Shown here piece after piece: positions 927 through 15,092 of a stretch of 26,902 bases of DNA. The DNA lies in contig DYJG01000001.1 in NCBI GenBank assembly GCA_020723225.1, positions 1 to 26,902 of the forward strand, written 5' to 3'. The notes beneath the pieces were generated by a model. It worked only from the letters and a program-made list of their open reading frames with translations, made no database searches and was not told where the DNA came from. The position numbers and the translations under genes were made by a program. Each line of letters starts with the position of its first letter. Within the stretch, counting starts at the first letter, position 1. Origin of the DNA: Desulfobacca acetoxidans (GTDB taxonomy: Bacteria > Desulfobacterota > Desulfobaccia > Desulfobaccales > 0-14-0-80-60-11).

Positions 927-1229
927 ATGGCACAAGATGATCCTTCAATGCGCGGCAACAGATCACGAAACGAAACGGATGGTCGTCTCAGAAAGACCCG
1001 CGACGACAAGCACGTCGGTACCCTGGAAAAACAGTATGACAGGGACTTCGTGGTGCGCTCGGACATGCATGTGGACACCCTGCTCAAACAGACCGGTCAT
1101 TCATCGGTGAGCAAGCTTATAAAAAACGGAGCGGGCGTCCCCGCCCGTCAAACTCTGGGGAGACGGCCGCCCCACCGGCTCAGCGTCGGGATACCGTATT
1201 GTCATCATAATTGGAGATCCATATCTTGA
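927..1229 (+). CDS. Small conserved-looking hypothetical protein ([57 protein letters not shown]...), C-terminal tail probably read-through
   Basis: GGAGG at 912-916 lies 10 nt before ATG 927. From memory it resembles a widespread ~65-aa family with a VGTL.K.Y..DF.VRSD motif (not verified). After ~1126 the frame runs through a minus-strand terminator and overlaps the convergent gene. Confidence 0.55.
1121..1148 (-). terminator. Rho-independent terminator of the collagen-like gene
   Basis: Minus strand reads ACGG-GCGGG gacg CCCGC-TCCGT followed by TTTTT, about 30 nt downstream of the stop at 1180. Confidence 0.7.
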
Positions 1230-3087
1230 CGCCGTCAAAGGCCAGCCAATGGGGGGAATTTCCCACCGGAATGGTCCCCAGGAGGGCCCCGTCCGCGGCC
1301 CGCAGCTTGGTGACGGTGTTGTCCAGGGAATTGGCCACCCAGATACTGGCGCCGTCAAAGGCCACCCCGTAAGGAAAGGACCCCACGCTGTAGGTTCCCA
1401 CCAGGGAGCCGTCGCTGGCCAGCAGCTTGGTAACGTTGAAGGTCAGGGAGTTGACCACCCAGATATTGGCCCCGTCAAAGGTGATGCCCCGGGGAGAGCC
1501 GCCCACCCCGTAGGTCCCCAAAACAGTCCCGTCGCTGGCCAGCTTGGTGACGCTGTTGCCGTCATAGTTGGTCACCCAGATATTGGCGCCGTCCGAGGCA
1601 ATGCCATAGGGGCCGTTACCCACCCCAAAGGTGTCCTGGATGCCCCCGTCGCCGGGGTTGAGTTTCATGACGTTATTGCTGCCGTAGTTGGCCACCCAGA
1701 GATAGACACCGTCAAAGGCAATGCCGGCGGGATTGTTGCCTACGCTATAGGTGCCCAAGATGTTCCCGTCGCTGGCCCGCAGCTTGATGACATTTTGGGA
1801 GCCGTAGTTGGTCACCCAGATGTTGGCGCCGTCAAAGGCCACGCCCAGGGGATTGAAATCCATGCTATAGATTCCCAGCAGTTCTCCGTCGCTGGCCCGC
1901 AACTTGGTGACGGTGTTGCCGGGGGCGGCGTTGGCCACCCAGATATTGGCGCCGTCAAAGGCCATGCCCTCGGGACGGGTGCCCGTCCAGATATCGGGCA
2001 AGGTCCGGATCGCCGGGTACCAGCGCAGAAGGGCGATCTGCTGGGGGTTCAAGGAAGCCCCAGCCGGGCCTTGGGGTCCGGTGGGTCCCTGCGGCCCCTG
2101 GGGACCGGTGGCGCCGGTTGCCCCCGTATCTCCTTTGGGTCCCTGGGGGCCGGTCGCTCCGGTTTCTCCTTGGGGACCTTGAGGGCCGGTGGCCCCGGTG
2201 TCGCCTTTAGGTCCCTGGGGGCCGGCAGCCCCGGTAGGACCCGGGGGGCCTTGGGCTCCGGTGTCGCCCTTGGGTCCCGCAGGTCCGGTTGCCCCGGTTG
2301 CCCCGGTGTCCCCCTTGGGGCCTGCCGGACCCGCGGGGCCGATATCACCCTGGGGGCCTTGAGCGCCCGTGTCTCCCTTGGGACCCGCAGGCCCCGCCGG
2401 GCCGGTGGCCCCGGTGTCGCCTTTGGGCCCCTGGGGTCCTGCCGGGCCCGCGGCGCCGGTATCCCCTTTAGGCCCGGGAAGTCCCTGGGGTCCGGTTTCT
2501 CCTTGAGGGCCTTGGGGGCCGGTGGGTCCGGCAGGCCCGATGGGTCCTCGGGGGCCGGTGTCTCCCTTGGGGCCTGCGGGTCCCGGAGGTCCCGGGGGGC
2601 CGTCGGGACCCGCATAAGTGAAGCGTAAACCTACAACCAGGGCGGCCCGGCTATGCGAGGTGAAGTGCAATGTGACGTAATCGGTTCCCGGGGTCAATGT
2701 CCTGGGAAAGATGGAGGATACATCCACCTCCTCCATCATGTTGGGTGTAAGGGTAAGAGGCAATCCCGTTTTTGATCTTTGCACCCGGGTATATCTCTTC
2801 CCCTTTGCGGATAAGGACAGATGCAGGTCATAGGTGGTGGCGCCTCTGGCTCCGCCGATCAGGACCACTTTGGCCTGGGAAAACGACGTCAGATTGTCCG
2901 GAATCGCGAAGCAAAACCGAGTATTGGAGTTGGCAGTTATCGGCCAGTCTCCCATTGCAAGATTCGAGGCCCCCACCTGGGGACTGACCCAGATCTCATT
3001 GGCCCGGGTCATGGTGGAAAAACCCGGGAAGATGATGAAAATCAACAAGTACAAGGCTATTATCGAACATTTTCTGTTGAGGGCCAT
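1180..3087 (-). CDS. Secreted collagen-like protein with C-terminal 7-bladed beta-propeller (YVTN/NHL-like), 635 aa
   Basis: Start reassigned to ATG 3087 (AGGAG RBS, signal-like [29 protein letters not shown]). About 62 uninterrupted Gly-X-Y triplets, then [12 protein letters not shown], then seven ~40-aa repeats with a [10 protein letters not shown] core. Confidence 0.9.
1183..1985 (-). repeat. Seven propeller-blade repeats at nucleotide level
   Basis: CCGTCAAAGG-like cores (plus strand) start at 1232, 1352, 1472, 1589, 1709, 1829 and 1952, giving periods of 120, 120, 117, 120, 120 and 123 nt. Confidence 0.9.
2053..2610 (-). repeat. Gly-X-Y collagen repeat tract (about 62 triplets; recurring GPKGDT unit)
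   Basis: Counted directly from GPD (2610) to GAS (2053). Confidence 0.95.
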
Positions 3088-3217
3088 AGTTTCTCCTATC
3101 TTCGCCCGAGATACCGCAGGTGATCTCCCGGCTGCGTCCCAAAGGAATAGACGCCGGGGCGCAACTATGCAATCCTTTGATTTCCTTATCCTCAAGGCAG
3201 CCCTTCTGGGGAGGTGT

Positions 3218-5455
3218 TCAGCTTTCCTCCAGAGCCTGTAATTCCCTGGAACTCCGACGGATATTGCTGGAGAGCACCTTTCCCACATTAAACATCAATT
3301 TTAGGGCCACCGCGGGTTCCGTCCGGCATAAAGCCTCAAACTCCCGGTAGGGCAGGATCAAGGCCTCGGAGTCTTCTTCGGCCCAGACGTCGGCGGAACG
3401 CGGTTTGGCGTCCAGCAGGGCCATCTCTCCGACAATGACTCCCGGACCAAAGGTAAACACCCTCTTGAAACGATTCTCCTGGGGCAGGCGCATCTTGATG
3501 GTTACCGTGCCTTTGGTCAGAAGAAATAAGTCCCGGTTGGTATCTCCTTCGTGAATCAGGACCTCGCCTTGTCGATACCCTCGAACCCTCAACCTCCCTT
3601 GCAGGACCTCCAATTCCCGGTCGGTAAACCCTTGGGTAATCTCCATCCGGTCCAGGGGAACTTCTGCCGGTTTCTCCCCGGCATAGCTCTTCGCCAAAAG
3701 ATCTTCCTCGGCCCATTCCAGGGCGGCATCGGTATCCGGATAAAATTGGCCTTGCTGGAGTACCCTATGCAAATCCATGATCTCGACAAGCTTCCAGAGG
3801 GCCGGATGGCCCTGGAGATAGCTGACCAACAGGTGTTTCCCACGCCTGTGGGCGCTGGTGATCAGATGCAGCAGAACATTGGCGCCGGTGCTGTCAATTT
3901 CGTTCACCCGCTTCAGATCCAGGATCGAGTAATCCGCCGTTCCCCAGGCCTTCTCAACTTCTTTGGCCAGGCTCTCGGCAGAGCCGAAAAACAGGGGGCC
4001 ATGAAGTTCAAAGACGACAATCCGCCGGCCCTCCTGCCCCAGGGTGGCGGTGTGCGCCCCGGGACGCCGCTTCTTCGAATGCACCTGGTCCCCATAGTAA
4101 GTGCGGTGGATAACCGACTTGCCCATTTTGGCAATGAACATCAGCGAAGAAATTACCACCCCGATGCCCACCGCTTCGATCAGATTGAAGATGACGGTTA
4201 TGACTGCTACGGTCGCGCAAATTAACAGGTCAAAGAGGATATCCTTTTCCTGTTTAAAGGGAATTTTACGGCGCTGCCGGGCCTGGACGGCCAGTTTGCC
4301 GATGATGTTTAAGGTGCCTTTATCAACCAGGCCGATGGCCACGGCGATGATAATCCCGGCGATTACCGCCAGGGGAATCCTCCCCACCAGGGAGCCAAGC
4401 ACCAGGATAACCAGGAGAATGATGACGCTGAACATCATCCCTGACAGGTGGGTACGGCCGCCGGCCTTGAAATTGGCCAGGGTCCATGACAAACCCCCAC
4501 CGGCAAAGATTGCCCCGAAGGCTGAAGAGACGATATTGCCGAGCCCCTGGCCGATCAACTCTTGATTGCTGCGGTGGTGGATGCCGCTCAGGTGATCGGA
4601 GGCTACCGACGTCAGGAGAGACTCCAGGGAGCCGAGTATTCCCAGGACCAGACCGGGTACGAGGAGGTATGGCAGAAATGCCTTAACCTGTTTGATGTCC
4701 CAGGTTCGCAGCAGATTGACAAAGGCCTCCGGCTCCGGCCATTCCCCGCCGATTTTGCCGATGACCGGTCCCAGGGAGGAGAAGCCGTTTATGGCGCCGA
4801 GGCCATAGTAAAACGCCGTTCCCACCAGCAATCCGGCAATACTGCCCGGAAGGCCCTTAATCCAGCGGGGCGCCGCGAAAATGGCGGCCAGCGTAGCCCC
4901 TCCTACTATTATGGTCAAAGGTTCAATGCTGGAAAGGTGCTGGAGAACGGCGATAAAACCCGAGGCGCCGTCGATGCCCAGAAGCGGTCCGAGTTGATGC
5001 TGAACCATAATAAAGGCAATGCCATTGCTGAATCCGGCCACCACTGGATAGGGCACATATTTGCTGAGATTGCCGCAGCCCAGCGCCCCCAGGCAGACCT
5101 GGAAAATCCCGCCGATGAGGACGGTGAGGGAAACCAGCCCGACTAGCACCGCCATCCGGGGGGCCATGGCCTGGGGAATATGCGGATTCGCCGCCAAGGC
5201 CGCCACCAGGGAGGCCAAAACCAGGGTGGTGGAAGCCTTGGGCCCGGTTATCTGCAGGGGATTGCCCCCGAGCCAGGCGGCGAAGAAGCCGGCAAAGATC
5301 ACGGTATGGAGGCCGAGGAGAGCGCCCAGGGCCATGGAGCCAACTCCAAGAGGAGCGAAAACGATAATGCCATAACCGATGCACGAAGGCATGGTGATGG
5401 TGGCCGCGGTAACCGCGCCCGCTAAGTCTCCCTTGAAGTTTGAAAAGATCGCCAT
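3218..5455 (-). CDS. SulP/SLC26 family anion transporter with STAS and cyclic-nucleotide-binding domains
   Basis: [11 protein letters not shown]...GYG N-terminus, [30 protein letters not shown] ([11 protein letters not shown]...EIDSTG) and cNMP domain (GEVLIHEGD...[15 protein letters not shown]). Start 5455 is preferred because 5605 overlaps the upstream gene. Confidence 0.93.
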
Positions 5456-6611: not shown

Positions 6612-7520
6612 TTAATCCAGGAGCAGCATTAGCGCCGGCGCCGATCTCTGGCTGGGCGCGCCCCAGGGGGTGGAGGTCATGCCCATCTGGGCCTTGCCGT
6701 TGTTCCCCAATAAGGTCAGTGCGCCGCTGCCGGTGTCAATCCGGTAAAAATTGCCGTTAAAATCGCCGCCGTAGAGGGTTTCGCCCACAAAAGCCAGGCC
6801 CGTGACCGCGGTTTGCCCCCAGCCGTCGCCGATCAGGGTGGCTTCGCCGGTAAGCAGGTCAAAGGTGGCCAGCGAATATTTGATAATCTCTTCGTCCGTT
6901 GTCCGCACCACGCTGCCATACAATATGGTACGGTCCATGGGGCCGGCCAGGTCGCCGCCGTCCATTTGGGGGGGACCGATCCCCATGGCGGTGTAAATAC
7001 CGGGGGTGGCGCTCATGGGCCCGTAATATTGGTAGGTGTTATCAAGGCCGCCGAACTGATAAACGCCCCCGGCTCCGTTGTCGGTGGTCCCGAGCACGCT
7101 GCCGCCAAAGAGCAGGTTTTCTTCACCGAATAAGACCCCCAGGCCCGAGATGCCCAGGCCCTCTGAAATTGCAGCGGTTTCGGTAGCACGCACCTTGCCT
7201 TCTGTCGGGTGAAGAAAATCCAGGACATAAAACCTGGTCTCGGCAAAGACATCGCTGAAAACGCCGAACATCCAGGAACCGTCAAAGGCAATGTCCTGCA
7301 AGTAAATCAAGGCTCCCTGGCACTCGATGTCCCCCACCTTGGTGGCGGCCCCGGTGGCGGTGTCCACCGTATAGAGGGTGGACCACGTGGTTAGCGGCGG
7401 CTCCACGTTTTTTTCCTGGGCCAGCATGTACACCGTACCCGCATCCGCCCCCGGCTCCGCCCCGAAGGCGAAGGCCAGGACCAATATCATCATGAGGCAA
7501 ACCACCCGTCTGCTGCGCAT
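6612..7520 (-). CDS. Secreted beta-rich/propeller-like protein with hydrophobic C-terminal tail (...SAPALMLLLD)
   Basis: AGGAGG RBS before ATG 7520. Signal peptide MRSRRVVCLMMILVLAFAFGA. Repeated LYTVDTATGAATKVG / LATFDLLTGEATLIG / FYRIDTGSGALTLLG strands. Confidence 0.75.
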   Translation of the reverse strand: MRSRRVVCLMMILVLAFAFGAEPGADAGTVYMLAQEKNVEPPLTTWSTLYTVDTATGAATKVGDIECQGALIYLQDIAFDGSWMFGVFSDVFAETRFYVLDFLHPTEGKVRATETAAISEGLGISGLGVLFGEENLLFGGSVLGTTDNGAGGVYQFGGLDNTYQYYGPMSATPGIYTAMGIGPPQMDGGDLAGPMDRTILYGSVVRTTDEEIIKYSLATFDLLTGEATLIGDGWGQTAVTGLAFVGETLYGGDFNGNFYRIDTGSGALTLLGNNGKAQMGMTSTPWGAPSQRSAPALMLLLD

Positions 7521-7726
7521 AAACCCTCCTTTGGCAGGGCTGCCGGCGCTTGCGTTGCCCACCTTGCCGGCGGGTAGGGCAACGGCGCACCTGAATCCCT
7601 GCACCGCCGGCTCAGCGGCCGGGCTGGGGCAGATTCACCCCCTGCCCGGCCTGCAGCCCTGGAAATCCACCAACCCGGGACCCGGGGATAGCCCCGCCGC
7701 CCCGCAAATAATCCGCCAAGGCCCAA

Positions 7727-8101: not shown

Positions 8102-8434
8102 TTATTCCAATCCAGAGTCCGCCTTATCCGTAAAAAGTCTCCAGGTTCTAATAGGGAAAGTGGGGGGCATCCGGAAATCGGGAGCGCAAATTGTTCCCGG
8201 GCGCCGGCCCAGGCCGGCGGCGATCTTTTTGAGTTCTTCCGGGGTCAACTCCTTGCCGGCGGCTACCGCCAACTCTTCAATCACCTGTTTGTATTCCTCC
8301 AGGATAAAATCGAACCCCGCCGCCTTGATGATCGTCTGCCGGGTTTCCAGGCCGGGCGCGGCTTCCAGCCGATCCTGCAAGGCCTGATCGGTTGCGATCC
8401 TTTTGAGAAAATCCCTGACTGACTGTACGGACAC
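8102..8434 (-). CDS. Nif11-like leader RiPP precursor 1
   Basis: MSVQSVRDFLKRIATDQALQDRL...AAGFDFILEE...ELTPEELKKIAAG, then core LGRRPGTICAPDFRMPPTFPIRTWRLFTDKADSGLE. GTG start with AGGAGG RBS. Confidence 0.88.
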   Translation of the reverse strand: MSVQSVRDFLKRIATDQALQDRLEAAPGLETRQTIIKAAGFDFILEEYKQVIEELAVAAGKELTPEELKKIAAGLGRRPGTICAPDFRMPPTFPIRTWRLFTDKADSGLE

Positions 8435-8449
8435 AATGCTACCTCCTCT

Positions 8450-8722
8450 TTAGAGTCTTAAGTAATTGTAATGGGGTCCTTTACAAGCGCACCAGCCGCC
8501 GCCTCCGCCGATACTTTCGAGTTCCTCCCGGGTCAACTCCCGGGCGGTGGCCTCCTTAATTTCTTCCACCACCTGCCTGAACTCCTCCAGGGTGAACCCT
8601 CCCCCGGCCGCCTGAATGATCCGCCACCGGGACTCCAGGTCGGGCGCGGTTTCCAGCCGGCCCTTCAACTCCGGATCGCTCTCGATCCTTTGGAGAAAAT
8701 CCCTGGCTGACTGCAAGGACAT
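8450..8722 (-). CDS. Nif11-like leader RiPP precursor 2
   Basis: MSLQSARDFLQRIESDPELKGRL...ELTREELESIGGGGG, then core WCACKGPHYNYLRL. AAGGAGG RBS. Confidence 0.92.
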   Translation of the reverse strand: MSLQSARDFLQRIESDPELKGRLETAPDLESRWRIIQAAGGGFTLEEFRQVVEEIKEATARELTREELESIGGGGGWCACKGPHYNYLRL

Positions 8723-8858: not shown

Positions 8859-9991
8859 TCAAAATGCTTTCTTCCAGTGATGGTTCACGCCCACGTAAGC
8901 CTTGGCCACCAGTCCCGTCCCGGTTCGATGACCATCTTCAAATGGCTGATGGTCCGTATGAAATAGCTCAGTTCCTCCAGGCGGGATTGGAGACAGCGGC
9001 GGCGCAGGGCCGGGGGCAAGTTGATCAGGTCCGCGCCCATGGCGGTGGAGCCGGAGATATTTCGCAAGGCCTCCCCTTTGGCCCGGGTGCACAGATTTAA
9101 GCGGCAGAGTTCATCCAGAATTCTTCCCAAACGGGGATCAGGGAACGAGTTGACCGGGGTCAGCATGAGATCCAGGCCGACCTTGGGCTGCACTTCCTCC
9201 AGCAAGTCCAGGTGCAGGATGAATTCGTCGTCATAAGGACTGAGCATCTCCAGAACTTTCGCCACCCCGGGCAGGTCGGCGGGAACCCTCGATTCCCTCA
9301 AGTATTCCAGGATTGCCTCTCCCGGCATCTCCAAACAGAGGCGCAGCACCGCGGGGCGCCGGGACAGCATGAAGCCGATCTGCCCCAGCCGCGCCTCCCC
9401 GGGCAAAAGCTCCAGGCAGGAAAAGGCAGCGGCAATGCCAGCCGTAGAGAATGCCTCGCCCAGTTCCCGGGACAGGACCGCGAGTAGAGAGCTGTACCTC
9501 TGAATTTGACCGGTCCGGGACTGGCGGTGGTTAGCTGGAGTTAGGAAAAAGCTGGGTGAGTAAGGCTGTGTTCCGTTAATATCGAATTCGAGCCAGATCG
9601 CCTTGATCTCCTGGTGCAGCAGCTCTCCGGGCTGATTCCATCTCTCGGCCAGTCGCTGTAAGACAAACCAGGAGTTATCCCCGGCCCCAAGCCCGGCAGG
9701 CCGCCGGGCGGCCAGGGCTGCGGCGCAGCCAAGTTCCGCCGCGGCCCGGAAGGAGATATCCGCCCGGGCCGCCGCCTCCCCCAGGAAGAATTCGAAAAAG
9801 AAACCGCCCAGAGCGCAGGGGCCGGGCACCCGGGACGCGACTTCCAGAATCCGGGCATAATAGTCCGCGGACACCAGACTGGCCGGAATAGCCGGTCGGA
9901 TGGCCCGAAAATACGCGGCCCCGGATTCATCTTCCCGGAGCCAGGCCTCCAGGAGGTTCTTCGGCTCCGGTTCCCAAGTTACGACTTTCAT
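8859..9991 (-). CDS. RiPP-associated hypothetical enzyme, possibly an ABBA-fold aromatic prenyltransferase; 1-nt frameshift near the C-terminus
   Basis: ORF 8885..9991 has FFFEF.LG..ADIS, IWLEFD, IGFMLSR...LRLC, LHLDL...PKVGLD and RTISHLKMV. The neighbouring frame (ORF 8859..9092) supplies GLVAKAYVGVNHHWKKAF. One extra G at the GGG run (plus-strand CCC 8914-8916) joins them. The fold call is inference. Confidence 0.5.
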
Positions 9992-10101
9992 AAGAATCGA
10001 TATCCTCTTCCCCGGGGGTTCCCGGTTACATCTCCTCCCAAGGTGAAAAAAGGTTACATTGGGGGGCGACCCTTACCCCCCGTTTCCCGGGCATCCCTCG
10101 A

Positions 10102-10234
10102 TCACATCGCTTTTGGGCTGCAATCATGATAGGGGCATAACAAGCGGGAACACCAATGCAAAGGGCACCAGCCCCCTAAAGGCCTGGTCGGTGTCGATCC
10201 TTTTCAGAAAATCCTTGACTGACTGTACGGACAT
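10102..10234 (-). pseudogene. Nif11-like precursor 3 with internal leader deletion and frameshift; hidden core GG-WCPLHWCSRLLCPYHDCSPKAM
   Basis: AGGGAGG RBS, then ATG 10234 MSVQSVKDFLKRIDTDQAF (first 39 nt differ from precursor 1 at 3 positions). A +1 shift gives GGWCPLHWCSRLLCPYHDCSPKAM-TGA (10104-10102). Confidence 0.8.
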
Positions 10235-10247
10235 GCAATTATCCTCC

Positions 10248-11576
10248 CTATTTATTTTTGGTCGATGAATTTTCCTGCCGCTTTGTCCGGTAACGGACTT
10301 CCAGAAACTCGGTGAACCGGCTTTTCAGGGGCATGCAGGTGTTGAAGTCTTCGCCCTGAAACAGGCGGCGGGAGCGAAAATGGGGGCAGCCGCCGCTGCA
10401 CCGGGGGAGGAAGAGACACCGGCGGCAGGTGTCGTCCGCGAAGACCTCCGTGCCCATCATGTACCTGGACAGCAGGGAATAATTCCACTCCCGGTCCGGG
10501 AAGATGGAACCCGCCACCCACTCCGGGTTGCCCACGTCGTGCCAGCAGTTGTAAATCTCTCCCTCGGGGCCGATGAGGAAGCTGTTGCGCCGTTTGGCCA
10601 TGCAGGGGGTAGGATTGGGAAAGGGGTCCGGACTCCAGTCATTGCCATCTTCCCGGTACAACTCCATCAAGAGGTCATCCACCTCTTCCGAAGAATATTC
10701 GCAGTGCGCGTCCGGGTTTTCCCGGGGGCCGTCTTTGACGATTCCCGGGTAAACATTGAGGTTTTTTCCCTGGAAGCGTTGCCTCAGTTGGCCGCGCGCC
10801 TCGAAAAACTGCGCCCGGTTGCTTTGGTCCATGTTGACCCGCAAGTTCAGGCGTCCCGGCCAGCGCTCCAGCAGGCGTTCCACGTTGGCCATGATCACCC
10901 CGTAGGAATCGCCCCGGGTGGCATGGGGCCGGCGGCGGTTGTGGATTTCTTCAGGGCCGTCGATGGTGATTTGGATGGACTCGATCTTCAGGTCTTCCAG
11001 TTGGCCGATGCGCTCCTCGTCCAGCAGGTAGCCGTTGGTGACCATGCTTGCCTTGTACGGCACGTCCAGGGCCTTGAAGTCTTCCGTAAGCCGGCGGATG
11101 CGGTCGAATTCCAGGAGGGGTTCGCCGCCGAACCAGCAGATGTCCAGAAACTTGAGTTGGCCGAAGAGCTTGAAGCGTTCGACAAAGGCCAGTAATTGGG
11201 CATGGACCGCGTCGTTCATCCGCTGGGGCCGCTTGTGCCGCTGGTAGCAGTAAGTGCAGCGGAAATTGCAGGCCAGGGTGGGCACGATGGTGAGAGCCAG
11301 GAGGCTGCTGTGCAGGTTGTTCAGGTTCCGGCTCAACAAGTTCAGGTTCAGGAGGTCCCGCTCTTCCCCGTTCTCCACCAGGATCTTGGCCCGACGAAGT
11401 TGCAGCAGCAGCGCGGGGTTATTGGTGAAATCGTAGGCTTCCGGGTTTTCCCGGATTTTTTTCAGTTCCGCGGCCAACTGCGGCTCAGCCGCCGCGAAGG
11501 TGTTGGACAGGGAGTTGTAAAGCAGATAGCAGCCTTCGGGTGACTGCCACAGCATGGTATAGTCGGACCATTTCAA
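10248..11576 (-). CDS. Radical SAM/SPASM peptide maturase with probable N-terminal RRE
   Basis: CNFRCTYC (CxxxCxxC), WFGGEPLL, TNG and QITIDG motifs. SPASM cysteines PC...NCW...CRRCLFLPRCSGGCP...C. N-terminal MKWS..YLLYNSLS is a winged-helix-like segment. TTG start with GGAGGA RBS overlapping the upstream stop. Confidence 0.93.
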   Translation of the reverse strand: MKWSDYTMLWQSPEGCYLLYNSLSNTFAAAEPQLAAELKKIRENPEAYDFTNNPALLLQLRRAKILVENGEERDLLNLNLLSRNLNNLHSSLLALTIVPTLACNFRCTYCYQRHKRPQRMNDAVHAQLLAFVERFKLFGQLKFLDICWFGGEPLLEFDRIRRLTEDFKALDVPYKASMVTNGYLLDEERIGQLEDLKIESIQITIDGPEEIHNRRRPHATRGDSYGVIMANVERLLERWPGRLNLRVNMDQSNRAQFFEARGQLRQRFQGKNLNVYPGIVKDGPRENPDAHCEYSSEEVDDLLMELYREDGNDWSPDPFPNPTPCMAKRRNSFLIGPEGEIYNCWHDVGNPEWVAGSIFPDREWNYSLLSRYMMGTEVFADDTCRRCLFLPRCSGGCPHFRSRRLFQGEDFNTCMPLKSRFTEFLEVRYRTKRQENSSTKNK

Positions 11577-11580
11577 GGGC

Positions 11581-11871
11581 TTATCCTCCGGACCCGGCGA
11601 GTTCGGGAAAAATCAGGGCGCCGATCTTATCCAGCCGGGCCTTGACGCGCTCTGCCTTGGTGGGCGGCGGCGCCACCGGGGCCATGTCGAAATACAGGTC
11701 GAAGTCGAAGACCTCCAGGACCGGGCCTGCGGGGACTTCCCGGCCGCCGGCCTCTTGGAGGGCCTCCCGGGGTTGGAGCAGGACCTTCTTCCTAAACTCG
11801 TCATCCACCGCGGCCTTGCGGTCCGCGGCCCGAAGCGCGGCGGCCAGTTCCGACGGAGACCAGTGGCTCAT
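11581..11871 (-). CDS. NHLP (nitrile-hydratase-like leader) type small protein, 96 aa, ending GSGG with no core
   Basis: GAGGAG RBS before ATG 11871. MSHWSPSELAAALRAADRKAAVDDEFRKKVLLQPREALQEAGGREVPAG matches the NHLP pattern (KA..D.EFR..LL..P..AL.E..G..P). It is the true gene inside track ORF 11581..12522. Confidence 0.72.
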   Translation of the reverse strand: MSHWSPSELAAALRAADRKAAVDDEFRKKVLLQPREALQEAGGREVPAGPVLEVFDFDLYFDMAPVAPPPTKAERVKARLDKIGALIFPELAGSGG

Positions 11872-12181: not shown

Positions 12182-12217
12182 ACGCGTGGCCCCGAATTAG
12201 TCGAAAGGCGGCGGTTC

Positions 12218-14344
12218 ATGAGCCTGCGCACCAAACTTCTCGTTAGCCTGGCCCTGGCGGTTATCCTGGGTATCAGCCTGGCGTCCTGGGCAGTGTACCG
12301 GTTCGCCCGGGACGAACTGGAAGCCTCGAAACGCCGGCATCTGGCCCAGGAGGCGGAGATGCTGGCCCGGCAGACCGAGGCTTGGCTGCAATTAGCCAAG
12401 TCGAACGTGGCGTTATGGACCGACATGCCTTCAGTCCGGGAGGTGGCCCTAAATCCGGGCAATTCTGCCAGCGTCGCCGAGGTCTGCGGCTTTTTCCGGC
12501 GCGTCGTGGAGATCGGCGGCATCTATCAGAACGTCAATTTGATGGGCCTGGACGCCGCCTGCCTGGCTTCGTCCGTCCCCAGCCGCATCGGTTTAAAACG
12601 CATGCAGGAAGTGGTCGCCACCCGCCTGGATTTTAAAGAGGCTTTAACGGGCAGGGCTGTTGTTACACCGATGTTTACGTCCGCTTCAAACGGGCGAACC
12701 ATCATTGGCATTTCGGCCCCGGTATTTGAGGGTGCGAAGATCATTGCCGTGATCCGGGTGGTGATTGACATGGCCTTTTTCGACGATGTGCTCCTGAAGC
12801 CGAAGGATGTGAGAACTGCCGGCCGCTCCGGTATTTTCGATCCGAAGTTCGTCGAGTCGAAGGACACCACGTATCTCAAGTATCGGGATATCAGCGATAT
12901 TTTCATCAAGGGGAAAAAATACTTGCCTCTGGAGATCCCGGCGCCGGCCGCGGAGTTTGCCCGGGAGAGCGGCATCATTCAATACCCTGATAAAAAATTG
13001 GGTGACATCCTGGCCGCCTTTCACCGGATCAAGGAACCCGAGTGGATCATTGTCTTGGAGGAGCCGCTCCAAGAGATTTTGGCGCCCATCCGGAACGTGG
13101 GCCGGGTAGCTTTGGTGTCGGCGTTTTTTTTGATCTGTGCGGTTTTCGGGGTGGTCTTTTTTCTGGTCAATCCCAGGCTGCGCGGTATTCTCAGTTGTCT
13201 GCGCCTGGCCCAGGAGATCGGCGGGGGGAACCTGGAGGCCAGGCTGGATTTGGGCGCCCATGACGAGATCGGCAGGCTGGCCCAGGGGTTGAACACCATG
13301 GCCGCCGATCTGGCCGGCAGCCGCCAGGCCCTGGAAGAGGCTGAACGCACCTACCGGGGGATTTTCGAGAACGCCGTGGAAGGGATCTTTCAGATCGACC
13401 GGGATAATCGTTTCATCGCCGCCAATCCCTCCTTTGCCCGCATCATGGGCTTTGCGGAGCCCGGGGAATTGCTGGGCCGGCCCTTCCCCGCCAGCTTTGC
13501 GGATCCGGCCCAAAGGGAGGCCTTCTTTGCCGAGCTCGAGTCCCGGGGGATAGTGGAGGGTTTTGAGTTCAACTTTATACGTCGGGATGGCGCCCTCGTC
13601 GGGGCCGGTTCCCTGTTCGCTCAGGCGGAAAAAGATGACTCCGGCCAAATCGTTCTCATCCAGGGCATGCTGGCGGACATCACCGAAAGACTGAAAGCGG
13701 AGCGGGAGCGGCAGCGGGCCGAAGAGGCGGAAAGCCACCTGGCCCGGTCGCGCCTGCAGGCCCTGCGCTACCAGATCAACCCCCATTTCCTTTTTAACAT
13801 CCTGAATTCCATCGATGCCCTGGCCAAACAGGCGCCCCAGAAAATCCCCGATCTTATTCGCGAGCTCTCCCGCTATCTGCGTTTCACTTTGACGGAGCAA
13901 AAAGACGGCCTGGTGCCCCTCCACCTAGAACTGGACGCCATCACCAGCTATCTCAAACTGGAAAAAATCCGCTTTGAGGACGACCTGGTGGTGGAAATTA
14001 TTACCTCCCCCAATTGCGGCGAGGCCCTGGTTCCGGAGTTGTTGATCCAACCCCTGGTGGAGAATGCCGTAAAGTACGGCATGAAGACTTCGCCCATGCC
14101 CCTGCGGATTGCCATCAGGTGCACCTTGACCGAGAAGATGTTGGAGGTGGAGGTGGCCAATACGGGGAAATGGCTCAGTGACACGGAAGCCGGGCAGGCC
14201 AAGAGCGGCATCGGTTTGCAGAACCTGCGCCAGAGACTGAATCTGCGCTACCCCGACACTTCCAGTTTGACACTCGAAGCCCGGGGAGGGTGGATAATTG
14301 CCAAAGTAGACCTTCCCTTTACTAGGTTTGATAAGGATGCCTGA
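12218..14344 (+). CDS. LytS-type sensor histidine kinase (TM-Cache-like-TM-HAMP-PAS-His_kinase-HATPase)
   Basis: Real start MSLRTKLLVS at 12218. HAMP (DEIGRLAQGLNTM), PAS (IFENAVEGIFQ), LRYQINPHFLFNILNSI, IQPLVENAVKYG and GIGLQNL motifs. Confidence 0.93.
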   Translation: MSLRTKLLVSLALAVILGISLASWAVYRFARDELEASKRRHLAQEAEMLARQTEAWLQLAKSNVALWTDMPSVREVALNPGNSASVAEVCGFFRRVVEIGGIYQNVNLMGLDAACLASSVPSRIGLKRMQEVVATRLDFKEALTGRAVVTPMFTSASNGRTIIGISAPVFEGAKIIAVIRVVIDMAFFDDVLLKPKDVRTAGRSGIFDPKFVESKDTTYLKYRDISDIFIKGKKYLPLEIPAPAAEFARESGIIQYPDKKLGDILAAFHRIKEPEWIIVLEEPLQEILAPIRNVGRVALVSAFFLICAVFGVVFFLVNPRLRGILSCLRLAQEIGGGNLEARLDLGAHDEIGRLAQGLNTMAADLAGSRQALEEAERTYRGIFENAVEGIFQIDRDNRFIAANPSFARIMGFAEPGELLGRPFPASFADPAQREAFFAELESRGIVEGFEFNFIRRDGALVGAGSLFAQAEKDDSGQIVLIQGMLADITERLKAERERQRAEEAESHLARSRLQALRYQINPHFLFNILNSIDALAKQAPQKIPDLIRELSRYLRFTLTEQKDGLVPLHLELDAITSYLKLEKIRFEDDLVVEIITSPNCGEALVPELLIQPLVENAVKYGMKTSPMPLRIAIRCTLTEKMLEVEVANTGKWLSDTEAGQAKSGIGLQNLRQRLNLRYPDTSSLTLEARGGWIIAKVDLPFTRFDKDA

Positions 14345-15092
14345 CGACCCCAAACCTTTGCCGGCCCTGATTGTGGACGATGAACGGCTGGCCCGGGAGA
14401 ATCTCCAGGGCCTGCTGGCCGCGTATGAGGAGATTGTGGTAATCGGCGAAGCGCGCAATGCTGCGGAGGCCCGGCGTATGATCGCCGATCTGCGTCCCGG
14501 TCTGGTTTTTCTGGATATTCAGATGCCGGGCGGGTCGGGGTTTGACTTGCTGGAGCAGCTCGAATTTCCACCGCCCATCATCTTTGTCACTGCCTTCGAT
14601 GAATTCGCGGTGCGGGCTTTTGAAGTCAACGCCCTGGACTACCTTCTAAAACCGGTGGAACCGGCACGGCTGGCCCGGGCCATCAGGAGGGTGGGCCAGC
14701 GGACTACCGAACCGTACGGGAGAGCCGCTCCGCTGCACGGCACGGACCGCGTCTTTCTGGATACCGGGTGGCAGGCGGTATTCTTGCCGGTGGCGGAAAT
14801 TGCCGTCATCCAGGCCAAGGGCAACTACACCCAGGTAATCGACGTCCACGGCCGCAGCTACCTGGTGCGAGTTCCCCTGCACCAGTGGGAAAAGAGACTG
14901 CCGGTTGAAGATTTCGTCCTGCTGGACCGCTCCTTAGTGATCAACCGCTGCCAGATTACCCGATATGTCCTCCACACCCGCCGGGCCGAGCTCTACCTGG
15001 GCGCCATTGCTCAACCCTTTCTCCTGGGCCGCCAGGGGCTGCGCCGGTTCAAGGAACAGGTGCTGCCTTATGCCGGTGAAAAAAAACCCTGA
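14337..15092 (+). CDS. LytTR-family response regulator
   Basis: Receiver (LIVDDE, FLDIQMP, FVTAF, DYLLKP) plus LytTR domain (IAVIQAKGNYT...FVLLDRSLVIN). ATG 14337 overlaps the kinase stop. Confidence 0.92.
   Translation: MPDDPKPLPALIVDDERLARENLQGLLAAYEEIVVIGEARNAAEARRMIADLRPGLVFLDIQMPGGSGFDLLEQLEFPPPIIFVTAFDEFAVRAFEVNALDYLLKPVEPARLARAIRRVGQRTTEPYGRAAPLHGTDRVFLDTGWQAVFLPVAEIAVIQAKGNYTQVIDVHGRSYLVRVPLHQWEKRLPVEDFVLLDRSLVINRCQITRYVLHTRRAELYLGAIAQPFLLGRQGLRRFKEQVLPYAGEKKP

Follow-up and report, generated by a model that had tools for sequence, protein, structure and literature searches.

The window analysed here, a stretch of 26,902 nt from a Desulfobacca acetoxidans metagenome-assembled genome (MAG; 84% complete, 808 contigs, coverage ~7.5x), carries a RiPP cluster on its minus strand, and the features that matter below are collected in Table 1. 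The radical SAM/SPASM gene (rSAM) is intact. Its product displays a visible CxxxCxxC motif, scores 64.9 bits against PF04055 and 52.4 bits against the SPASM model TIGR04085 (cut-off 27), and is 78-79% identical over its full length to the orthologs of two congeners, G004 and G005; by these matches it belongs to the generic radical SAM/SPASM maturases. The NHLP-like gene preceding it terminates with a stop codon 2 nt ahead of the rSAM start codon. Divergent from the cluster, at 12200-15092 (+), lie genes for a Cache-HAMP-PAS LytS-type histidine kinase and a LytTR response regulator, and this flank is syntenic in G004 and in the related contig L116. LytTR systems often sense peptides, and the LytS/LytTR pair may regulate the RiPP cluster or sense its product. 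At 1180-3288 (-) the window further contains a 702-aa open reading frame with collagen triple-helix repeats (PF01391, 98.7 bits).

Table 1. Features around the leader-core junction and in its neighbourhood (window positions)
Feature	Position	Strand	Basis or remark
5' fragment of the precursor gene presumed to have come first behind the rSAM gene in the ancestor	10177..10234	-	RBS + ATG, codons 1-19
GG + 22-residue core + stop	10102..10176	-	+1 frame relative to ATG 10234; from the precursor preceding the PT-barrel gene
Deletion junction TTTA/GGGGG	10176..10179	-	synteny with G004 and L116
Open reading frame from ATG 10234	10124..10234	-	36 aa, stop 10126-10124
Intact radical SAM/SPASM RiPP maturase, 442 aa	10248..11576	-	PF04055 and TIGR04085 over cut-offs
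96-aa NHLP-like protein ending in GG, no obvious core	11581..11871	-	TIGR03793 22.4 bits vs 50.9; L116 1753-2043
Conserved 368-aa PT-barrel (ABBA prenyltransferase fold) gene	8885..9991	-	directly downstream of the core
Nif11 precursor 2, intact, core starts GWCAC	8450..8722	-	47.1 bits; orthologs in G004 and L116
Nif11 precursor 1, PPTFP-type core + C-terminal extension	8102..8434	-	ortholog in G004

A leader start and a Cys-rich core lie in two reading frames

Right behind the rSAM stop, an ATG at 10234 (-) with GGAGGA upstream opens a leader fragment of 19 Nif11-leader codons (57 nt, 10234-10178), which is followed by a single surplus base, the A at 10177. From 10176 (-), the +1 frame then reads GG and WCPLHWCSRLLCPYHDCSPKAM up to a stop codon at 10104-10102, with Cys at core positions 2, 7, 12 and 17 and with the motif CPxHxC occurring twice at a 10-residue period. 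Minus-strand translation thus bears out what the original prediction had described at this place, namely the DNA of a third precursor in which a leader start gives way to GG and an off-frame Cys core with CX4 spacing. The core is absent from the list of open reading frames because its frame contains a stop codon upstream and has no ATG, GTG or TTG ahead of the core. The frame that does start at ATG 10234 encodes 19 Nif11-like residues followed by 17 residues matching nothing in the relatives' precursors, and this tail overlaps the core in a different frame.

The 36-aa product scores 19.7 bits against TIGR03798 (cut-off 32.3), aligning to model positions 1-21 of 68 only, and 22.1 bits against PF07862 (cut-off 23.8). 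The window copy consequently falls outside the Nif11-leader family, as it stays below both cut-offs, does not hold leader and core in one frame and has its L(X)4L region deleted. Its similarity to the window's two other leaders covers the 5' part and breaks off after GCCTTT-A. A MAFFT alignment of the three window precursors misplaced the core, and the single large gap became visible by gap-tolerant pairwise alignment and BLAST. A genome-wide search found no second copy of the core in the MAG.

Intact orthologs carry the same core behind a full leader

P0001 is encoded in G004, a congeneric Deltaproteobacteria MAG (contig QZIZ01000056.1; its locus coordinates are given as L022), and P0002, found by a protein search with P0001, sits on L116, a 15.6-kb contig. 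Both are intact 96-aa precursors with a full Nif11 leader, GG and a core nearly identical to that of the window; the leaders end in ELTPEEL...AGG, and P0001 scores 75.2 bits against TIGR03798, over its cut-off. GG and core of the window match P0002 in 22 of 24 residues (92%; E 4e-20 pairwise and 6.6e-12 genome-wide) and P0001 in 20 of 24 (83%), with the four Cys positions and both CPxHxC motifs common to all three sequences. Homologs joining an intact Nif11 leader to this core, on whose existence the original prediction had staked its case, are exactly what P0001 and P0002 represent. As for the 10-residue doublet that it had pointed out, the repetition of CPxHxC holds and is conserved in three of three orthologs; the two halves are, by manual count, only ~43% identical at the nucleotide level, and a recent duplication is therefore not demonstrated.

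The genomic setting of the core is shared as well. L116 and window DNA are 82-87% identical, the 1.3-kb syntenic block holding the window core is 82% identical at the DNA level, and the core stands directly upstream of the conserved 368-aa PT-barrel gene in the window, G004 and L116, with the GC-rich hairpin in its 3' flank also conserved. Together with the match to P0002, this block shows that the off-frame core is more than an accident of translation. In G004, at least 14 Nif11 precursors follow the rSAM gene, P0001 (precE) being the fifth. The leaders of these arrays are conserved and their cores hypervariable; given that the other cores possess differing Cys spacings, the five-residue Cys period is a property of one ortholog group and not of the cluster. 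Between window and G004 the core differs by six synonymous and four non-synonymous changes, with no internal stop. This pattern looks like purifying selection, and it would be equally expected if the deletion described below were recent.

A degenerate WCP[LF]HWC pattern occurred at 89 places in the genome contigs, of which only one (on QZIZ01000056.1) is real, the rest being chance occurrences in unrelated frames; a longer degenerate core pattern had no match in the metagenome contigs, a set that evidently lacks the JGI contigs that carry the core, so that this absence carries little weight. The intact precursor family, defined by a Nif11 leader, GG, W and two CPxHxC motifs, is an uncharacterised type, and it always adjoins the gene of the PT-barrel enzyme within arrays whose enzymes include an rSAM/SPASM protein and a B12-rSAM methyltransferase.

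Synteny places a multi-kilobase deletion at the junction

By BLAST, window positions 11882-10179 correspond to L022 695-2397, which comprises the rSAM gene and the first 56 nt of G004 precA, and window positions 10176-8868 correspond to L022 4772-6082, running from the GG codon of precE/P0001 through the 368-aa gene. The gap between these two blocks in G004 is 2,372 nt in length (length mod 3 = 2) and contains what the window is missing: the rest of the first precursor, three further precursors, a 215-aa open reading frame and the fifth precursor's leader. In L116, 4.1 kb separate these two blocks, and a B12-rSAM gene lies within that interval as well. The loss of roughly 50 codons with a shift of frame, as originally read from the window, hence holds with respect to leader loss and frame shift and was underestimated in extent, because the deletion is 2.4-4.1 kb in size and spans several genes.

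There is no evident microhomology at the junction, indicating an illegitimate deletion and not homologous recombination between leaders, which would give an in-frame chimeric gene. In the relatives, the core lies 2.4-4.1 kb downstream of the rSAM gene. Its position beside the rSAM gene in the window is thus a consequence of the deletion, and the proposal that it is the most likely cognate substrate on account of its adjacency to the rSAM stop has to be given up, since this adjacency is a deletion scar. Inside the arrays of three relatives (L022:3397-4044, L116:4227-4829 and L023:4475-5053), within the stretch deleted in the window, there is also a conserved open reading frame of ~200 aa, for which no Pfam or NCBIfam family was found.

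Further losses in the precursor arrays

Relative to G004, a second deletion of ~4.5 kb removed five to six precursors together with the gene of a TIGR03975 B12-rSAM C-methyltransferase. In all, the window cluster has lost the B12-rSAM gene and ~10 precursor genes; no TIGR03975 member over the cut-off was found anywhere in the 84%-complete MAG, and precursor 2 is the sole intact GWC-type core left in the window. In G004, within L022:9175-11443, the ortholog of precursor 1 follows a 650-aa TIGR03975 RiPP radical SAM C-methyltransferase (616 bits) whose gene is missing in the window. Precursor 1 itself ends in a 15-residue C-terminal extension that is absent in G004.

L116 bears scars of its own. 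Right behind its rSAM stop, at L116:3389-3560 (+), a single Logan contig holds an out-of-frame remnant with differing breakpoints, in which 11 leader codons are joined, in another frame, to ...TPDELQGVAGG and a GKAGSGC-type core that belongs to another precursor type. At L116:9767-11242 (+) there is a truncated, 404-aa TIGR03975 B12-rSAM gene covering model positions 1-392 of 606, and behind it follows a 72-aa fragment matching the C-terminus of the window's 330-aa open reading frame (6612-7604), another deletion scar. The remnant and the truncated B12-rSAM gene of L116 indicate that deletions in these arrays are recurrent and independent.

The gene downstream of the core encodes a PT-barrel protein

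An AF2 model of the 368-aa protein (pLDDT 91.0, pTM 0.89) aligned to CymD with a VIA Z of 17.4 (rmsd 3.9 A over 290 residues) and, over ~290 residues, to MpnD, DMATS enzymes, TleC, AmbP1 and NphB with VIA Z of 13-17, and the best 50 Foldseek matches were all aromatic prenyltransferases. The protein accordingly has the PT-barrel fold, and prenyl transfer is predicted from this fold. At the level of sequence, none of 81 homologs matched Pfam (with regard to membership of PF11468, PF11991 or PF19156), and the family profile found no match among PDB sequences; the family counts 1,552 representatives at E <= 0.001. The window gene carries a 1-nt deletion near 8914-8916, as a result of which the C-terminal AKAY strand can be read in another frame only. 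This strand is conserved, and an alignment of 81 sequences shows its Lys and Tyr to be almost invariant.

Discussion

Breakpoints, synteny, intact orthologs and recovery of the junction in an independent assembly are all in evidence, and with a probability of roughly 0.85 we regard the feature as a deletion-derived pseudogene of a Nif11 precursor, in which the 5' end of one gene has been fused to the 3' end of another. The ancestor would have had the order rSAM/SPASM gene, several precursors, a last precursor with the CPxHxC-CPxHxC core and the PT-barrel gene, a layout that three congeners still have. The loss of roughly 2.4-4.1 kb would then have brought codon 19 of the first precursor, plus 1 nt, next to the last precursor's GG codon. 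Because this join does not preserve the reading frame, translation from ATG 10234 would yield 36 aa, the final 17 of them frameshift sequence, and would not produce the core. We infer that the remnant is without function. Most of the leader went with the deletion, including the L(X)4L motif and the ELTPEEL region, so that 19 leader residues are left. In the Nif11 precursor MppE, a folded four-helix bundle at the N-terminus precedes a disordered region that contains the L(X)4L motif, and both the bundle and the motif are needed by the ABBA prenyltransferase MppC and the hydroxylase MppG (PMC12715784; bioRxiv 10.64898/2026.10.04.756588). What counts against a pseudogene is that the remnant retains a good RBS and an ATG and that its core is free of internal stops, with the substitution pattern described above.

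That the MAG is fragmented and of low coverage, with repeated leaders that are hard to assemble, raises the possibility that the organism has an intact longer gene or array and that the join arose during sequencing or assembly. However, a Logan contig of the probable source run X1 (a subsurface metagenome), which is an independent k-mer assembly, spans 9600-10592 with 0 differences at a depth of 7.5. Among the X1 contigs there is neither a different sequence upstream of the core nor the longer allele for which the original prediction had suggested a search, and the only other X1 contig touching the feature is the precursor-1 locus, by way of the common leader start. Moreover, the sequences flanking the junction lack homology to each other and have no long k-mer in common, which would make a repeat collapse or a de Bruijn misjoin implausible, and no further copy of the intact core was found in the MAG. 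We do not regard the junction as an artefact of the assembler, and an intact gene concealed by faulty sequence is very improbable. Somewhat different is the case of strain-level polymorphism, where the deleted allele was assembled and cells with an intact array coexist in the sample. Since the core shows no additional damage, the event could be a recent one, and our check of the junction was made on Logan contigs of three runs, a kind of assembly that drops minor variants and thus hides minor alleles. Against such a mixture, the X1 contigs show no alternative allele, and X2 and X3, runs of the same study, are without the locus; we consider it unlikely.

The deletion-derived pseudogene also has to be set against two readings in which the fused DNA has a function. 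A hidden third precursor, as the original prediction had it, would require a +1 slip at UUU-A-GGG, where skipping the A at 10177 after the Phe codon yields exactly ...DQAF-GG-WC..., that is, a 19-residue mini-leader followed by GG and the four-Cys core, for modification by the rSAM enzyme. RBS and ATG are intact and the core is undamaged. However, AGG, at 13.1 per 1000 in the window's genes, ranks third among the Arg codons in usage; it is not rare, so no pause of the hungry-codon kind is to be expected there. The site was created by a multi-kilobase deletion and is not conserved, the orthologs being plain in-frame genes, and the comparable scar of L116 has another frame offset and another sequence. 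In addition, both the L(X)4L motif and most of the helical bundle, on which Nif11-dependent enzymes rely (PMC12715784; bioRxiv 10.64898/2026.10.04.756588), would be missing from the slip product. A slip of this kind is therefore hardly credible; if it were true, it would mean that a Nif11-type maturase works with a drastically shortened leader. What remains of the hidden precursor is that the DNA is derived from Nif11 genes and contains a genuine RiPP core. In the window this core is not part of a working gene: its frame differs from that of the leader start and offers no start codon, and most of the leader is gone. Equally far-fetched is the possibility that the 36-aa frame, being open, equipped with an RBS and ending in a hydrophobic tail, encodes a functional, new small protein whose head resembles a leader: the final 17 residues result from reading GG and core in the other frame, and the 36-aa frame is unconserved in the genomes searched, where the relatives have an in-frame precursor instead.

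Taken as a deletion-derived pseudogene, the window locus represents ordinary gene decay and should be neither annotated nor followed up as a functioning precursor or a CefA/CefB locus. For tests directed at radical-SAM cross-linked and possibly prenylated peptides, P0001 and P0002 are suitable and the window locus is not. The window, G004 and L116, together with the gene order of G005, portray multi-precursor RiPP arrays that have been reshaped and eroded by repeated illegitimate deletions, and they advise caution in genome mining, where adjacent genes may reflect a deletion scar.

For the ancestral peptide, and by extension its intact orthologs, the likely route would begin with leader-guided Cys cross-linking by the rSAM/SPASM enzyme. 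The PT-barrel enzyme may then prenylate an aromatic residue, probably the Trp after GG, and the leader would be removed by cleavage after GG. A C39 peptidase domain is present elsewhere in the MAG. A complex prediction for the window rSAM and precursor 2 scored 0.02, a value that counts neither for nor against binding.

Comparison with known systems

Because of its Cys-every-fifth core, the locus had been tentatively compared with the CefA/CefB system of NCBIfam. The resemblance goes as far as Cys at every fifth core residue and a neighbouring rSAM/SPASM gene with a weak full-length CefB match, and it is a resemblance only. The rSAM protein scored 165.1 bits against CefB (NF038107), whose cut-off is 600, and TIGR04463 (195.6 vs 525) and Clo7bot (178.2 vs 600) both scored higher than CefB; with 88 bits against TIGR03974 (cut-off 425) and 115 against PapB (cut-off 340), the protein remains below the threshold of every named NCBIfam equivalog. 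On the precursor side, hmmscan of P0001 against all NCBIfam models at E <= 0.1 returned the Nif11 leader and weak or trivial matches in the GG region only, with no CefA-type family among them, and NF038106, whose accession stands next to that of CefB and whose identity as the CefA model is unconfirmed, had no match in G000 or G004. No relevant publication on Cys-every-fifth, CefB or TIGR04463 came up in a literature search. Unlike CefA, the precursors here carry a long Nif11 leader, and only one ortholog group shows the CX4C period. The locus thus does not belong to CefA/CefB.

The closest solved structure for the rSAM protein is 5wgg/5why (E 4.5e-17, residues 94-399), which we take to be the SCIFF thioether maturase CteB. 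The maturases of SCIFF (CteB) and of ranthipeptides (PapB) are similar to the window system in having a SPASM domain and Cys-rich cores, with CteB as the best match among solved structures. However, the window rSAM is far below their equivalog cut-offs, and thioether chemistry is here a prediction.

RiPP precursors with Nif11-like leaders make up the family of TIGR03798 and PF07862 (Haft et al. 2010, as cited in PMC12715784), of which P0001 and P0002 are full members. The first 19-21 residues of the window copy match the start of the model; the copy differs from the family in that the match is confined to model positions 1-21 of 68, is below the cut-off and leaves the core out of frame.

A literature search found no paper on a RiPP combining an rSAM/SPASM enzyme with an ABBA prenyltransferase. 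In the Mpp system, MppC is a Nif11-leader-dependent ABBA prenyltransferase that acts on a Trp of the thioether-cyclised (lanthi)peptide MppE, with the leader needed in cis (PMC12715784). The window locus departs from this system in that its substrate gene and its PT-barrel gene are both damaged. The intact family departs from it in its cyclase, which is a radical SAM/SPASM enzyme and not a LanM, and in its 368-aa protein, which is linked to prenyltransferases by fold alone. What the two have in common is a Nif11 leader, a thioether-type macrocyclase and an ABBA-fold gene beside a Trp-containing core. By this analogy, MppM/MppC/MppE would be the closest characterised counterpart of the intact family, the latter using a radical SAM cyclase where the Mpp system has its lanthionine synthetase.
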